This document shows, piece after piece, positions 529 through 29,844 of a stretch of DNA of 64,000 nt; the stretch's first letter is position 1, and each line of letters opens with the position of its first letter. The DNA is taken from positions 32,001 to 96,000 of IMG/VR virus record IMGVR_UViG_3300028591_000094. One strand, written 5' to 3'. Position numbers and translations under genes: made by a program. The notes beneath the pieces were generated by a model. That model was not told the origin of the DNA. It did not search any database and saw only the letters and a list, made by a program, of their open reading frames with translations. This stretch comes from a virus (taxonomy: Duplodnaviria > Caudoviricetes).

Positions 529-1200
529 ATGAAAAAAACTGTCAAATTGACTGAAAGTGAGTTGAAAGGATTAATCAAAGAGGCTGCAACTCGCGTCCTC
601 AACGAATACGGCGGCATGAAGTACCGCTACCACAAGGAACCTCTTCACATATATAATGGAATGGTTGTGCTAAGGCACGACTCGAGCACCAGAATAACCA
701 ACGGCAAGATTGACCGCACTGGGCGCGGATACAACGGATATTCCAAAAATTCCGACAGGGGAAACTACTTCTGGGCGTCGGAATCGATAGGTCACGACCC
801 CTCGAACGGGAAAATGTACAGTTACTACTGTTTTGTCGACCCGTCGCTGATATATGACTACGAGAAAAATCCGAAAGGATACGAGTCTCTCGACGATGCA
901 ATGGACAACGAGCCGTATGTGTCTGGTCGTTGGGGTGACGGTGCAATCGCTGTCATGACCGACCACCCAACACCGATTTCCTACATCTGGAGTGACGACC
1001 ACAGTGGTGACGACCTCGACAGTGGTCTGTTCGACGCCAAATGGCACATGCTCCGAAGTGGAACCGTCACATACAGGAAAAGAATCAACGCCGCCCTAGC
1101 GAGAAAACTAAGACCTAACATTGACAAACCAGTTCCAGATTTTCTCGCAGACTATGGTTTCAGCTATGAAGACGTTGTCAACCACGAAGTCTATTATTAA
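529..1200 (+). CDS. Hypothetical late protein with N-terminal KLTESEL..LIKE leader; possible ART-like fold
   Basis: 223 aa ORF, TATTTAT motif upstream; H-x-S and YF motifs only weakly ART-like. Confidence 0.6.
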   Translation: MKKTVKLTESELKGLIKEAATRVLNEYGGMKYRYHKEPLHIYNGMVVLRHDSSTRITNGKIDRTGRGYNGYSKNSDRGNYFWASESIGHDPSNGKMYSYYCFVDPSLIYDYEKNPKGYESLDDAMDNEPYVSGRWGDGAIAVMTDHPTPISYIWSDDHSGDDLDSGLFDAKWHMLRSGTVTYRKRINAALARKLRPNIDKPVPDFLADYGFSYEDVVNHEVYY

Positions 1201-5914: not shown

Positions 5915-5996
5915 TGGCTCGGGAGGGACTCGAACCCTCACCCCCGTAGGGACCTATTCTTGAGACAGGCGCGGCTACCAATTACGCCACCGAGCC
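5915..5996 (-). tRNA. tRNA-Leu(CAA)
   Basis: Cloverleaf; anticodon arm CCTGT-CTCAAGA-ATAGG; long variable arm. Confidence 0.93.
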
Positions 5997-6048: not shown

Positions 6049-6653
6049 TACCGCGAGTGGGACTTGAACCCACACACCCTTTCGGGCAACAGATTTTCCT
6101 GCCACTCTATGTTACCATAGCCAAACAAATAGTGATGCTGGGACTTAAGTAATTCTGAATTATTTCATCAGGCACCATTTTTTAATGTCCCTATAGTCTT
6201 TTGTTTGTTGTGGTCTGGAATACATCATTACCATATTGAAATTCTTGCAAGTAAGATATTTCTGAATTAAACAGAACCTTCAGAATAGACTTCTGTATGC
6301 TATCGCCACATCCAATATCTAATTTCAACTTAGGTATCTCCTATATACTCTCTACACATTTATGATACTCTCAATGTTGGCATCACAGAGGCAAACTTAA
6401 TGCTTGTGAAGTTTCCTCGGACATTAATTTCTCAATTTAGCACGGTATTATCCTTACACATTATTGGTTAGTGTCTTGTTTGGTCACAATTAAGTGCCAA
6501 TTTACGAAGTCACGCTAGCTGTGCTTTTTGGTTATAAGACTTCTTCAAGTTATAAAGGACTTCCACCGTTTTAGGGAGATTCTACATAGGGATTTCTCGC
6601 CTATGCACTCAATTTTCTAAGTCTGTCGTGTCTACCAATTCCACCACCGCGGC
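6049..6653 (-). tRNA. tRNA-Leu(UAA) interrupted by a group I intron (exons 6619..6653 and 6049..6097)
   Basis: Joining ACAGACTT to AAAATCTGT restores a CUUAAAA loop and a full type II cloverleaf. Confidence 0.92.
6098..6618 (-). ncRNA. Group I intron (IC3-like, trnL-UAA site), no evident ORF
   Basis: 5' exon ends in U and intron ends in G; P AAAACGGTGGAA, Q AATACCGTGCT, R GTAGAGAGTATA, S GATGTATTCC; P3 TCTCC/GGAGA. Confidence 0.88.
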
Positions 6654-6825: not shown

Positions 6826-7175
6826 AAAGAAAACCCAGCGCGGACGCTGGGGCGGCGCGATTTAGTTCGCGCCAGACTCGCTTTGGGTGCCCATACTAGG
6901 CAGCCATTGCATAAGAAGTTTTGTTGCCATTTAAACAACATCAGCGACCGTCTCCTTCCCTTGTACTTCTCCGCTGTCAAAACCTGTCACCCCCAAAATT
7001 ATCCTTATCTTACAAAGTATTGTCTTCCAACACGAGCCTTTTTCGATTGCGCTTCAGGATTAGCATCATTACCTGCAATGCTTTCGTGCCCTGGACACTT
7101 TGTAATTTTGTGGAGGTGGAGCGAATCGAACGCTCGTCCAAACGGTCTTTCCTCGGATTATCATCAACCGTCACT
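6826..7175 (-). ncRNA. ssrA: Circularly permuted (two-piece) tmRNA; tag (A)GNKTSYAMAA at 6896..6928
   Basis: Acceptor piece ...GAGCGTTCGATTCGCTCCACCTCCA (ends 7111) precedes coding piece GGGGGTGACAGGTTTTGAC (starts 6994); G3:U70; hairpin plus U-tract after the tag. Confidence 0.88.
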
Positions 7176-7179
7176 TTGT

Positions 7180-7258
7180 TGCCCGACGCGGACTCGCACC
7201 GCAGCCTACCTTTCCTCGCGCAGGAAGGTCGTTCTCGCTCGCTATTAAACTATCGGGC
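7180..7258 (-). ncRNA. tRNA-like RNA without a canonical anticodon loop
   Basis: GCCCGAT/GTCGGGC acceptor, D arm, extended stem with GCGCG loop, T loop TGCGAGT. Confidence 0.65.
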
Positions 7259-7287
7259 TACGCCAGCCATTTCAGCGGCTGGTCGTG

Positions 7288-7359
7288 TTGGGAATACCTG
7301 AATCGAACAGGTATTTCATCGTCCAAAGCGATGCGGGCTAACCGTTACCCCAATTCCCA
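7288..7359 (-). tRNA. tRNA-Gln(UUG)
   Basis: CATCG-CTTTGGA-CGATG anticodon arm. Confidence 0.92.
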
Positions 7360-7368
7360 ATTTTTTTG

Positions 7369-7439
7369 TTGTCCCACCCCGAATTGAACAGGGATTAACA
7401 GAGCCAGAATCTGTCGTGCTACCATTACACCATAGGACA
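7369..7439 (-). tRNA. tRNA-Gln(CUG)
   Basis: ACAGA-TTCTGGC-TCTGT anticodon arm. Confidence 0.92.
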
Positions 7440-7467
7440 ATTCAATTTGTATGCCTATTTAACCAAT

Positions 7468-19185: not shown

Positions 19186-20442
19186 CTAATAAAAACTGGA
19201 ATTATTAGTTTTTCCTTCTTGCTTCAACGAATCACTGCTTTTTAGGTTTGTTACCAAACGGTCATCCACAGTTGGGTTCTCCGCAAGCGTAAATTCGGTG
19301 TTACGGACACCTATTGTTCTTATTCCTTCATTCAAGATGTTGATTGCAGCATTCACATCCCTGTCGTGATGCTCGCCGCAAATCGGACAAACCCATTCAC
19401 GGTCGCTCAAAACCAAGTCCTTCTTGATGTAACCGCACTTGTGGCAGGTCTTGCTGCTCGGATAGAAACGGTCAACCAAGACAACCTTCTTGCCGTTTAG
19501 TTCCGCTTTGTCGGTCAGAACTTGTCTGAACCGATACAATCCGATTTCTTGTATCGCCTTTGAAAGTTTATGGTTCTTCAACATTCCTCTGACATTCAAA
19601 TCCTCCATACAAACCAAGTCGTAATCTTTAAGCAGGCAATTCACGACATAGTAGATGTATGCTTCCTTTTGGTTAGTCAATCGTTCAAACGCCTTCGCAA
19701 TTCTGACACGTTGTTTCTCTCGGTTGTGTGAACCTTTGACTTTCCTTGACAGTTGCTTCTGCAACCTCTTGACTTTTTGCTCTTGCTTTTTGAAGAAGTG
19801 CCTGTTATCAAAGACCTCACCGTCACTTGTAATCACAAAGTCCTTCACTCCGAGGTCTATACCAACGCATTGTTTAGTGTGTTTGAATTTGATAAGTTCA
19901 TCCTGCGGTATGTCAACAAGGATTGAAAGGAAGTAGTTGCCGCTCTTGGTTCTCGAAACGGTAGCACTCCTTATGCAATCTTTGTAGTCTTGAAGTCTCT
20001 CGTAATACAAGTCCGAACATCTAAACTTGATGTCCTTGAGGTCTTGAGTTAAAGTTATTTTTCTTTCATTGAATGTGTTGCGCTTTGAAATCGCTTCTGA
20101 CGGAAACAGTGCCGACTGCTTGTCCTTCTTTGACTTGAACTTCGGGAATCCGTTGTGCTGCTTGAAGAACTTTGAATAAGCGTCAAGCATTTGACGGATT
20201 GACTGTTTCATCACCTTTGTGTTCTGTTCTTGCAACCAAGCATAGTTCTCGTCTTTCAATAATGTTCCGTGAAACCACTTGGAAATGTCAGTTAGTTTAA
20301 GATTGGTCTTATCCTCGTCATAGGCATTGCGCTTGAATTCAAGGGTCTTGTTATACACAAAGCGGTAGCATCCAAGTACCTTGTCAAGTCTTGTCTGCTG
20401 TTCCTTGTTCGGATATAACCTTACCTTGATTCCTCGCAACAT
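19186..20442 (-). CDS. tnpB: TnpB RNA-guided endonuclease
   Basis: N-terminal HTH, GIDLG, MEDLN, PSSKTCHKCG, DRDVNAAINI. Confidence 0.95.
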   Translation of the reverse strand: MLRGIKVRLYPNKEQQTRLDKVLGCYRFVYNKTLEFKRNAYDEDKTNLKLTDISKWFHGTLLKDENYAWLQEQNTKVMKQSIRQMLDAYSKFFKQHNGFPKFKSKKDKQSALFPSEAISKRNTFNERKITLTQDLKDIKFRCSDLYYERLQDYKDCIRSATVSRTKSGNYFLSILVDIPQDELIKFKHTKQCVGIDLGVKDFVITSDGEVFDNRHFFKKQEQKVKRLQKQLSRKVKGSHNREKQRVRIAKAFERLTNQKEAYIYYVVNCLLKDYDLVCMEDLNVRGMLKNHKLSKAIQEIGLYRFRQVLTDKAELNGKKVVLVDRFYPSSKTCHKCGYIKKDLVLSDREWVCPICGEHHDRDVNAAINILNEGIRTIGVRNTEFTLAENPTVDDRLVTNLKSSDSLKQEGKTNNSSFY

Positions 20443-21483: not shown

Positions 21484-21835
21484 GTACACAGAAACTTATG
21501 AAAACTTGTGATTTTCATCAGTTTCCGCTTCCTGCTTCGACGAGCCGCCGCTTCTTAGGCACGTCTCCGTGCGTTCGTCCACGGTTGGGTTCTCCACAGG
21601 CGTGAATTCGGGTCTACGGAACCCTATTATTCTTTCACCTTCCATAAGGATATTAATCGCAGCATTCAAATCCCTATCGTGATGTTCACCACACACGGGG
21701 CAAGTCCACTCACGTTCGCCAAGGGTCAATCCCTTGTAGACATAGCCGCACTTATGGCAGGTCTTGGAACTGGCGTACCACCTGTCCACCTCCACGATTT
21801 CCTTTCCATTCAGGGAAGCCTTGTCCATGAGCACG
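21484..21835 (-). pseudogene. tnpB: tnpB 3' remnant with element right end
   Basis: SSKTCHKCG..CPVCG..DRDLNAAINI..EFTPVENPTVD, similar to 19186..20442. Confidence 0.88.
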
Positions 21836-21903
21836 GACTTGAACCTGCACGCCTTTCGGCACTTGCTCCTAAGGCAAGCGTGTCTGCATTCCACCACAAG
21901 GGC
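21835..21903 (-). pseudogene. Truncated duplicate tRNA-Leu(UAG) fused to the tnpB remnant
   Basis: Near-identical to 21147..21226 up to GGTTCAAGTCC, then tnpB sequence. Confidence 0.85.
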
Positions 21904-22666: not shown

Positions 22667-22829
22667 ATATTAAAAATGAAAAATAAACCGCACCCAAGAT
22701 GTTGCTCGACCAACCTTCTTGAAATTTCCCTTATCCGCATTCAAATCTCACGTGCGACTGAACTTGTTACGGTTGCTGAACGCGCCCTTTTTCGAGAGGG
22801 CTCATGGCCGTTGTGGCTTATTTTCATTG

Positions 22830-23366: not shown

Positions 23367-23972
23367 TTAGTAATATTTTTTTCTGCCCCTACGACCTGAT
23401 TTGTTATGAGATTTATAATTATCTGTAAGTGAATGGCAGTTAGGGCACAGTACTTGAAGGTTATCTAAATTATTATTTGTATAATTACCATCAATATGAT
23501 GTATTTCAAGCGGAATTGTTTGTGTATATTCGTTCCGTTCACCCCATCCACATTTTTCACATTTATAATGGCTTTTTTTCAACAGATATTTTCTAATAAA
23601 ATGTGACAAATTATATTCGCCACTTAAACCGTTGCATTCTCCATTCAGCCACAGTTCCACGTGTTTTTGCTGTCTATACTCACCAGAACATTTCGTTGAA
23701 CAAAATTTATTGGTTGAACTATAGGAATGTTCAAATTCACACCCACAATTCAAGCAAACATGTTTCACCTTTTCTTTTATCGTTTTACCTTTATTAAAAT
23801 GTTCGTTGGGATTTATTTGGCGTTTATTTTTTAACTCAATACCCAACTTTTTACATGCTTTTTTTATTGTGTTAGAGCTTACACCATAATTGCGCCCGAT
23901 TTCACAATATGATACGTTTTCTTGAATCATCTTTTCAAGATTTTCCTTTTCGTTAGACCAATTAATCTTCAT
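23367..23972 (-). CDS. HNH homing endonuclease (free-standing) with N-terminal HTH
   Basis: CEKCG, LEIHHIDGN..NN..NLQVLCPNCH. Confidence 0.92.
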   Translation of the reverse strand: MKINWSNEKENLEKMIQENVSYCEIGRNYGVSSNTIKKACKKLGIELKNKRQINPNEHFNKGKTIKEKVKHVCLNCGCEFEHSYSSTNKFCSTKCSGEYRQQKHVELWLNGECNGLSGEYNLSHFIRKYLLKKSHYKCEKCGWGERNEYTQTIPLEIHHIDGNYTNNNLDNLQVLCPNCHSLTDNYKSHNKSGRRGRKKYY

Positions 23973-24029: not shown

Positions 24030-24112
24030 AGCCAAGGACAAGATTCGAACTTGCGCGGACTTTCGTCACTGGGTTACAAAACCAGTACATTCAACCACTC
24101 TGTCACCTTGGC
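24030..24112 (-). tRNA. tRNA-Thr(UGU) with long variable arm
   Basis: CTGGT-TTTGTAA-CCCAG; V arm GAC-GAAA-GTC; U73. Confidence 0.78.
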
Positions 24113-24117
24113 AAAAT

Positions 24118-24473
24118 AACGGTTTTTCTCAGTCATTATAACCATATTGAAATTCTTGCAAGCCTCATTCCGATTAACTGGCTGCCCATTTACTGTTTTT
24201 ACAATCTTATGGACACGTATATGAGTTATAATTCCAATTTAGGCTGCAGGTTTGTGTATGCGTTTATGAGAACTTGAACATCGATTGGAACGCGCGTGTC
24301 TAGTTCAGTAATCTCAATTTAGCTCGGCGTTGTCCTTACACATTATTGGTTAGTGTTGAGAAGTTACTCCGACTAATGTCATTGTTTATCTTATCTATCA
24401 CCTATAAAATAGGACTTCTCTTTTAAAAGGACTTTCACCGAATTAGCCCGCTTCTACTGTTGAAAAAACCGTT
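24118..24473 (-). ncRNA. Free-standing group I intron-derived RNA scaffold
   Basis: 24-nt and 22-nt blocks identical to the 6098..6618 intron; covarying P3; closed by AACGGTTTTTTCA/TGAGAAAAACCGTT. Confidence 0.75.
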
Positions 24474-24476
24474 TTG

Positions 24477-24594
24477 TGTGACAAGGAGGATTCGAACCTC
24501 CACCGTGACCACTTCTTTCGGCGTGCCCGCCTACTTCCAGACTCGAACTGGGGACCAGATGCCTCTGTGCGTTTACCTATTTCGCCATTGTCAC
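24477..24594 (-). ncRNA. tRNA-like RNA with two T-loops and no anticodon loop
   Basis: GTGACAA/TTGTCAC, Leu-type D arm, CCAG-TTCGAGT-CTGG plus GGAGG-TTCGAAT-CCTCC. Confidence 0.72.
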
Positions 24595-27112: not shown

Positions 27113-27930
27113 TAGCGGGAGAGGGACTCGAACCCCCGACCTCAAGGTTATAACATTAATACTCCATTATCATATTCCCAATGGTGGTTAGGGCACAATC
27201 CTATGAGATTGCTAATAGAGTTTATCACGCTTACTGGTGTACAATCATCAAATTCAGAAACTGCTTTTATGTGAGCAACCTCAACATGATTTTTGTAACC
27301 GCAAATATGACAACTTGGATTTTCTGTGTTTTCAAAAAATACTTTTCTAGCATCTTTCTGTATTGCAGAACGAGCGGATTGCCAATTTTTCCTATTTTTG
27401 AACAACTCACCCTTCGTTTTGTTGTGAACATCATCAGTAACTGTAAGTTGTAGTTCCATACCTAACTTCGAACATCTTTCAGTTATTGCTTTTTTGGTGT
27501 TACTTGCAAGACATTTACACTTGTAACCAAGTTTTTTACCAATTTCTACCCAAGTTTTCGATGATTTTATAATATCAATGAACTCTTCATCACTTGGTGC
27601 GTTAACGAATGAAAACGTCTCAGTTTTCTTGTGTGAAAAATTTTCAATTTCGTTAATTTTTCTTCTTTGCGGTAACTTGATACCTAGTCGTTTTGCTCTT
27701 TTTTTTACAGCATTACCACTAATACCAAGTATTTTACCAATAGCGGAATAACTTTCATTCTGCTCTAAAATCATCTTTTTCAAAAATTCTTCTTCATTCA
27801 TAACAACTCTTTATTATAAATAGTTGTTACTTTTAAAAACGAACCTTCTTATTAAGAATAATCTTAGTTCGAATGGGTTTCGGCTTTTAAACCGTAAGAG
27901 CCTTGCGAGCTACCACTGCTCCATCCCGCA
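27113..27930 (-). tRNA. tRNA-fMet(CAU) split in the anticodon by a 746-nt HNH insertion (halves 27898..27930 and 27113..27151)
   Basis: CAAGGCTC joined to ATAACCTTG restores an initiator-type tRNA with a 1:72 mismatch. Confidence 0.85.
27148..27801 (-). CDS. HNH endonuclease inside tRNA-fMet
   Basis: CHICG, VEVAHIK, N..NLIGLCPNHHWEYD; N-terminal HTH. Confidence 0.92.
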   Translation of the reverse strand: MNEEEFLKKMILEQNESYSAIGKILGISGNAVKKRAKRLGIKLPQRRKINEIENFSHKKTETFSFVNAPSDEEFIDIIKSSKTWVEIGKKLGYKCKCLASNTKKAITERCSKLGMELQLTVTDDVHNKTKGELFKNRKNWQSARSAIQKDARKVFFENTENPSCHICGYKNHVEVAHIKAVSEFDDCTPVSVINSISNLIGLCPNHHWEYDNGVLML

Positions 27931-29090: not shown

Positions 29091-29190
29091 TATCCCCACC
29101 ACATTCCACATCGGCTGTCGTTACCAACCGAAGGTTCAATGTCGAGAACGACCCTTGCCCGCTTAACGACTGCGGGTTCAGGAAATTTAG

Positions 29191-29671: not shown

Positions 29672-29679
29672 GATAATAA

Positions 29680-29765
29680 CAAAAGCCAGGGCAGGTTTAA
29701 ATTACCGCGGGTTTAATCATTAATTGTGATTACCTTTTTGTGTTTTTGTTTGCTGTACGGCTTTC
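29680..29765 (-). ncRNA. ACAGCAA-motif RNA, copy D
   Basis: GAAAGCC-GTACAGCAA...GGCTTTT-G. Confidence 0.68.
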
Positions 29766-29844
29766 ATGTGTGTCCCCTGAAAAATCCTTTTGGGTTTATT
29801 TATTCCCCCATAACGGCGTCTAAACCTCAGGGACGTGCCTGTTG

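Follow-up and report, generated by a model that had tools for sequence, protein, structure and literature searches.

A free-standing group I intron core in a phage tRNA array is probably an eroded relic of a prolific tRNA-intron family

A spacer in the tRNA array of a 168-kb IMG/VR virus record (45% complete according to CheckV) resembles part of a group I intron and lies between two tRNA-type genes rather than inside one, which raises the question of whether it is a working intron, an RNA retained for another function or the remnant of an intron that once interrupted a tRNA gene. The window analysed here, a 64,000-nt stretch of this record, carries some 30 tRNA genes and a permuted tmRNA in one long array on the minus strand, with HNH endonuclease genes interspersed among the tRNAs. 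The spacer occupies positions 24113–24476 on the minus strand (364 nt), slightly wider bounds than the 24118–24473 of a preliminary description of the locus. It is followed downstream by a type II tRNA(UGU) gene of ca. 84 nt with an unusual anticodon loop (24030–24112, minus strand) and preceded by a 118-nt tRNA-like gene in which extra arms replace the normal anticodon arm (24477–24594, minus strand). A free-standing HNH endonuclease gene (23370–23972, minus strand) lies 57 nt downstream of the tRNA(UGU).

Several neighbouring genes of the array were unusual in their own right. The tRNA(UGU) has a long variable arm and an anticodon loop of 9 nt, or of 7 nt closed by a mismatch. Because L120, a 295-kb phage, has an ortholog whose loop core is the same (625–708, minus strand), this tRNA is predicted to be probably functional. 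In the tRNA-like gene at 24477–24594, the acceptor stem, D arm and T arm are all good, and ca. 54 nt of extra hairpins, one of them T-arm-like, stand in the place of the anticodon arm; ARAGORN did not call this gene, and no ortholog of it was found among 50 phage records. The tRNA-fMet gene of the array (27113–27930, minus strand) is split in its anticodon by ca. 750 nt of inserted sequence, in which an HNH_2 endonuclease ORF and small hairpins were recognised but not a group I core; a similar HNH-split tRNA is present in L120. TnpB/Cas12f-like ORFs (21499–21897 and 19186–20442, minus strand; TNB domain, E = 4e-23) add to the mobile-element load within the array.

Pairwise alignment, exact-motif mapping and a family profile established that the spacer is homologous to an intact 521-nt group I intron in the same window (6098–6618, minus strand), which interrupts the tRNA-Leu(UAA) gene between U34 and A35. 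Excision of 6098–6618 yields a clean tRNA-Leu(UAA); the last nucleotide of the 5′ exon is a U that faces the G of the GAGU guide, and a G terminates the intron. When 20 intact family members were combined into a profile, this intron was matched end to end (model positions 3–503, E = 3e-93), and the match of the profile to the spacer was limited to model positions 37–383 of 503 (window positions 24135–24458, E = 9e-34). Only these two copies were found with the profile in the 168-kb record; there was no third. Given the limited profile match and the complete tRNA-type genes on both flanks, the preliminary description was right to call the spacer a free-standing group I core without splice sites. 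It had also reported a 24-nt block (24333–24356) and a 22-nt block (24141–24162) as identical in the two copies, and both alignment and exact-motif mapping agreed.

The family to which the two copies belong numbers more than 100 members, spread over about 50 phage records. When IMG/VR was scanned for exact matches to the two blocks, 35 and 83 loci were returned, mostly on phage contigs of 100–400 kb, and ARAGORN with its intron search placed most copies inside tRNA genes, which they interrupt in the anticodon loop. The host genes encode Leu(UAA), Arg(UCU), Ser, Lys, Thr, Met, Tyr and suppressor tRNAs. BLAST against phage records additionally located this RNA in IAS virus and in the crAss-like phage cr116_1, where it separates the two halves of the primase gene (DNA primase).

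The core of the family was assessed with hand-drawn helices P2, P3, P4, P5, P5b, P6, P7, P8 and P9 on 53 non-redundant, full-length, intact members. Pairing was present in 97.5% of cells, compared with 35%–44% in slid controls, and compensatory changes on both sides occurred in 26 of 52 pairs, including four of the five pairs of P3 and three of the five pairs of P7. These two helices cross each other as the group I pseudoknot, with covariation in both. P2 is capped by a GAAA tetraloop whose closing pairs covary, the two halves of the classical 11-nt receptor (CCUAAG/UAUGG) are both found in P8, and P9 is a GUAA-capped hairpin. Judged from these pairing patterns, the family is a genuine group I fold and represents a lineage with large peripheral inserts. 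The 24-nt and 22-nt blocks are invariant across the whole family; the former comprises the P5b hairpin and the 3′ strand of P5, and the latter is the 3′ strand of P8 with the UAUGG half of the GAAA-tetraloop receptor. A self-complementary 8-nt bulge in P8 (CUUGCAAG, 24155–24162) is likewise invariant, as is the 11-nt loop of P5b. The bulge and the loop may serve tertiary or intermolecular contacts, and the letters of the P5b loop would allow a possible partial pairing to P8.

Standard annotation did not recover this lineage. No group I match emerged when the two window copies and the crAss-like homologs were scanned with Rfam, for long members even at E values up to 10. All long members, among them L004 (1200–1800) and L005 (1290–1960), escaped RF00028 at permissive thresholds. 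A compact member (L119, 4182–4383) did match the full RF00028 model, although its 38.8 bits (E = 3.6e-8) fall short of the gathering score of 50. The core covariation together with these Rfam results indicates a group I intron lineage that standard annotation misses. A literature search found reports of group I introns in crAss-like phages and nothing on this tRNA-intron family or on free-standing relics.

The intact members resemble the IC3 introns in tRNA-Leu(UAA) of bacteria and plastids (Anabaena, Azoarcus-like). As in those introns, the Leu copy is inserted between U34 and A35 and has a U–G pair at the 5′ splice site, a terminal G, the P3/P7 pseudoknot, a GAAA-capped P2, an 11-nt receptor in P8 and a GNRA-capped P9. 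A contact between L2 and P8 is used by Azoarcus-type introns. The family differs from them in being far longer (460–760 nt), with large inserts in P5, P6, P8 and P9, and in being undetected by Rfam except in its compact form. The spacer has the P3–P6 and P8 domains in common with the Leu copy and departs from the IC3 plan in having no P1, P2, P7, P9 or exons. Phage group I introns are also known from protein genes: some crAss-like groups have a high density of them in core genes, where they were found via their endonuclease proteins (Yutin et al. 2021, PMC7886860). The primase introns of IAS virus and cr116_1 belong to the RNA family described here, whereas most of its copies lack an ORF and reside in tRNA genes of much larger phages, and the spacer copy is free-standing and, by all appearances, dead.

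A strand-by-strand comparison defined what the spacer retains. The 5′ strand of P3, GCGGG (24447–24451, minus strand), pairs with a 3′ strand CCUGC (24246–24250, minus strand) through one G–U and otherwise regular pairs, whereas the Leu intron has UCUCC/GGAGA at this place. The P4–P5–P5b–P6 domain (24267–24441, minus strand) includes the invariant 24-nt block, and the P8 domain (24141–24243, minus strand) includes both receptor halves and the invariant 22-nt block. The claimed retention of P4–P6 and P8 was thus confirmed, with P4, P5, P5b, P6 and P8 all present. Between P3 and P6, only a degenerate J6/7 and a remnant of the P7 5′ strand are left (24251–24266, minus strand); this region carries a 5-nt deletion plus substitutions and has no pairing partner.

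Also in accordance with the preliminary description, the profile match and the comparison of strands placed P1, P2, both strands of P7, P9 and the exons among the missing parts. A hidden P7 was sought by comparing every candidate strand beside the 3′ strand of P3 and after P8 with the family pattern, and no partner was found. The spacer has no internal guide sequence, terminal G or flanking exons, and the profile detected no displaced segment of the P7 3′ strand and P9 behind the tRNA and HNH gene in the 168-kb record. The P8 receptor is left without its GAAA-capped P2 partner. Since neither a hidden P7 nor exons are present, the sequence indicates that the spacer is not an ordinary working intron.

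We consider it probable that the spacer is an eroded, catalytically dead relic of a group I intron from this prolific phage tRNA-intron family, and most likely a remnant of gene shuffling in the tRNA array rather than a newly domesticated RNA. By analogy with loci in other phages, an intron-bearing tRNA gene of the array might have been rearranged through recombination or through gene replacement driven by a homing endonuclease. Such an event would have removed the 5′ exon with P1–P2, as well as the P7 3′ strand, P9 and the 3′ exon, and a small deletion would have wrecked the 5′ strand of P7. The remaining P3, P4–P6 and P8 could still fold if the copy is young or mosaic. With P7 gone the RNA would not bind guanosine, and with P1 and the terminal G gone it would have no splice sites, so that splicing would not be expected. 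Neither a promoter nor a terminator was detected near the spacer, so the array and the spacer are probably transcribed together; RNase P and 3′ processing enzymes would then probably excise the neighbouring tRNAs and release the spacer as a by-product, presumably one without a function.

Relics of the same family in other phages provide the analogy. In L095 (minus strand, ca. 6900–7453), a full-length element without tRNA exons lies upstream of an intact tRNA-Leu(UAA). The copy in L118 (1068–1624) has lost its 5′ exon and P9 and is directly upstream of an intact tRNA-Leu(UAA). At 5920–6528 of L010, the 5′ half of a tRNA-Ser(UGA) is followed by an intron with a mutated P7 3′ strand that is cut after P8, and then by a complete intron-less tRNA-Ser(UGA). 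Further copies are a form without the P7 3′ strand and P9, fused to a tRNA 3′ piece (L050), and mere 3′ fragments (L057 and L089). A full-length intron in L052 (5277–5805) is followed by a tRNA 3′ half, with no recognisable 5′ half upstream, and is either a 5′-deleted pseudogene or a split gene. The intact tRNAs behind the relics in L118, L010 and L095 are intron-less and have the same identity as the usual host, an arrangement whose sequences point to in-place replacement of interrupted tRNA genes. Together, the relics look like an erosion series that begins when an intact tRNA gene takes the place of an interrupted one, and by comparison with them the window spacer would fit late in this series.

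The HNH genes among the tRNAs may be a plausible source of the breaks and gene conversion that such a history implies. The setting recalls the T4 SegB-type free-standing homing endonucleases of phage tRNA clusters, and the L010 and L118 relics, directly upstream of an intact replacement tRNA, correspond to in-place replacement of a tRNA gene. Unlike in the SegB-type systems, the part played by endonuclease activity is putative here.

The ancestry of the individual spacer segments is consistent with the relic interpretation. The compact intron of L119 is intact, with a perfect P7, and interrupts a tRNA-Leu(UAA) gene. Its sequence is the same as that of the spacer over the 24 nt spanning the 5′ strand of P3 (spacer positions 20–43, 100% identity), and its P3 3′ strand reads CCCGC, so that the P3 of the spacer differs from that of L119 by a single C-to-U change, giving the G–U pair. 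The preliminary description had taken the full covariation of P3 between the two window copies as an argument for domestication. The base changes are real; the argument built on them did not hold, because the same P3 variant in the intact L119 intron means that the compensatory changes predate the loss of splicing. Other segments have other closest relatives: spacer positions 121–165 are 100% identical to L036, and positions 234–336, the P8 domain, are 96% identical to the intact Arg(UCU) introns of L028 and L106. No relatives were found for the variable inserts. Because the copy is a mosaic, the intactness of its surviving helices can reflect youth and recombination rather than selection. Four observations nevertheless count against an eroded relic: the retained helices are all intact, the whole fold is unusually stable (z = −2.7), a closing helix sits exactly at the borders of homology, and CCUGC was seen as the P3 3′ strand in no other sampled copy.

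These observations bear on the principal alternative, which had been favoured in the preliminary description, namely that the spacer is a domesticated, non-splicing structured RNA kept for its function, in which P3–P6 and P8 were re-closed by a new helix. This helix would convert the pseudoknot into a nested three-way junction. The RNA might act on a factor with affinity for this intron family, as its scaffold or decoy, serve as a trans-docking receptor for a GAAA loop, or form an insulating or processing module for the adjacent tRNAs. The stable fold with every retained helix intact, the P8 receptor without an intramolecular P2 partner and the position within a terminator-free, probably transcribed tRNA array are compatible with such an RNA. 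The helix itself proved real. Its 5′ strand (24461–24473, minus strand) takes the place of P2, and its 3′ strand (24118–24131, minus strand) follows P8 where intact introns have the P7 3′ strand and the start of P9; it comprises 13 pairs with one bulged G, plus four more pairs (−16.3 kcal/mol). The minimum-energy fold of the whole spacer contains this helix together with P3, P4–P6 and P8, and none of 100 shuffled sequences was as stable. Only 20 of 5000 shuffles matched the closing helix, and its precise placement at the homology borders speaks for domestication.

The same type of end pairing was found elsewhere in the array, however. When the first and last 30–35 nt of 19 other spacers (90–1200 nt) were compared, four of them (22667–22828, 29672–29843, 7173–7286 and 29091–29189, minus strand) formed duplexes between their two ends that were at least as strong as that of the spacer (−17 to −20 kcal/mol). 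Such pairing suggests either a general closed-spacer design or more unrecognised structured RNAs in the array. End pairing therefore looks like a property of the array's spacers and not a hallmark of this element, and the terminal helix probably does little more than keep the spacer folded on itself, as in several of the others.

Conservation did not favour domestication either. Searches of IMG/VR viral contigs with three probes, taken from the junction that follows P8, the junction at the P3 3′ strand and the terminus of the tRNA-like gene upstream, returned no P7-less ortholog, and a scan of JGI metagenome contigs yielded one match, a chance hit on an unrelated contig of bacterial origin. 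When the locus was compared by BLAST with 50 family-carrying phage records, only the family blocks and generic tRNA matches were recovered, and the ortholog of the downstream tRNA(UGU) in another phage is preceded by an unrelated spacer of 190 nt. Since the collections searched may lack records close to this genome, the missing orthologs are weak evidence against conservation. The relics elsewhere are variously truncated and include no recurrent P7-less form. The invariant blocks, which had been thought to imply a shared protein or RNA partner, are ordinary core strands found family-wide and require no special partner. With the P3 variant inherited, the blocks common to the whole family, the end pairing frequent among array spacers and P7-less orthologs not found, the claim of domestication was left unsupported, and we regard it as unlikely.

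Group I cores can nevertheless take on new roles. The small degenerate rDNA introns of lichen fungi and GIR1 are group I cores without the parts for normal self-splicing, and the lariat-capping ribozyme GIR1 shows that such a core can be re-used. GIR1 has retained its catalytic core, has a reshaped junction and is conserved across species, whereas the spacer has no G-binding helix and no conservation of it was found. A specific form of re-use would be a maintained, 'unknotted' group I derivative, in which the terminal helix replaces P7 and the stable RNA acts within the tRNA array; we regard this as decidedly unlikely. Its orphan P8 receptor might dock the GAAA loops of further intron copies or a family-specific cofactor, or the RNA might insulate or present the flanking tRNAs. 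Were the domesticated reading true, the spacer would be a rare natural case in which a group I core has been turned into a non-catalytic RNA.

An active ribozyme, either with a cryptic P7 and unrecognised exons or as a trans partner for the split tRNA-fMet (27113–27930), is very improbable. Group I ribozymes that have been split can be reassembled in the laboratory, and the insert in the tRNA-fMet gene of this array has no ribozyme core of its own, both of which would suit a trans partnership. Against catalysis stand the failure to find complementary P7 strands on either side of the P3 3′ strand and P8, the missing internal guide and terminal G, and the profile result that no further intron fragments occur in the record to supply P7 or P9. 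The insert in the fMet gene moreover ends in U, not G, and the 5′ exon of that gene ends in C. A trans partnership with tRNA-fMet was rejected, given no guide, no terminal G and a complementarity of only 7 nt, which is of chance size. Hardly credible is an assembly artefact in which intron copies of co-assembled phages were joined as a chimera at identical blocks: although the record is a metagenomic contig and the spacer is a mosaic of pieces identical or near-identical to introns of different phages, the longest identical blocks reaching 45 nt, the flanking tRNA borders and the P7 deletion are unique sequence rather than repeat junctions, and conserved blocks are expected to look identical between lineages.

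As most likely a piece of genomic debris, the spacer matters little alone, and its context is more useful. Because RF00028 recovers only compact copies of this family, mis-annotation is likely for the split genes and intron-split tRNAs of such phages, and annotators should expect both intron-split tRNAs and intron relics in these arrays. In large gut and rumen phages, one group I family that mostly escapes Rfam has spread into many different tRNA genes and also into some protein genes, and the trail of relics that it has left documents the rebuilding of phage tRNA arrays.
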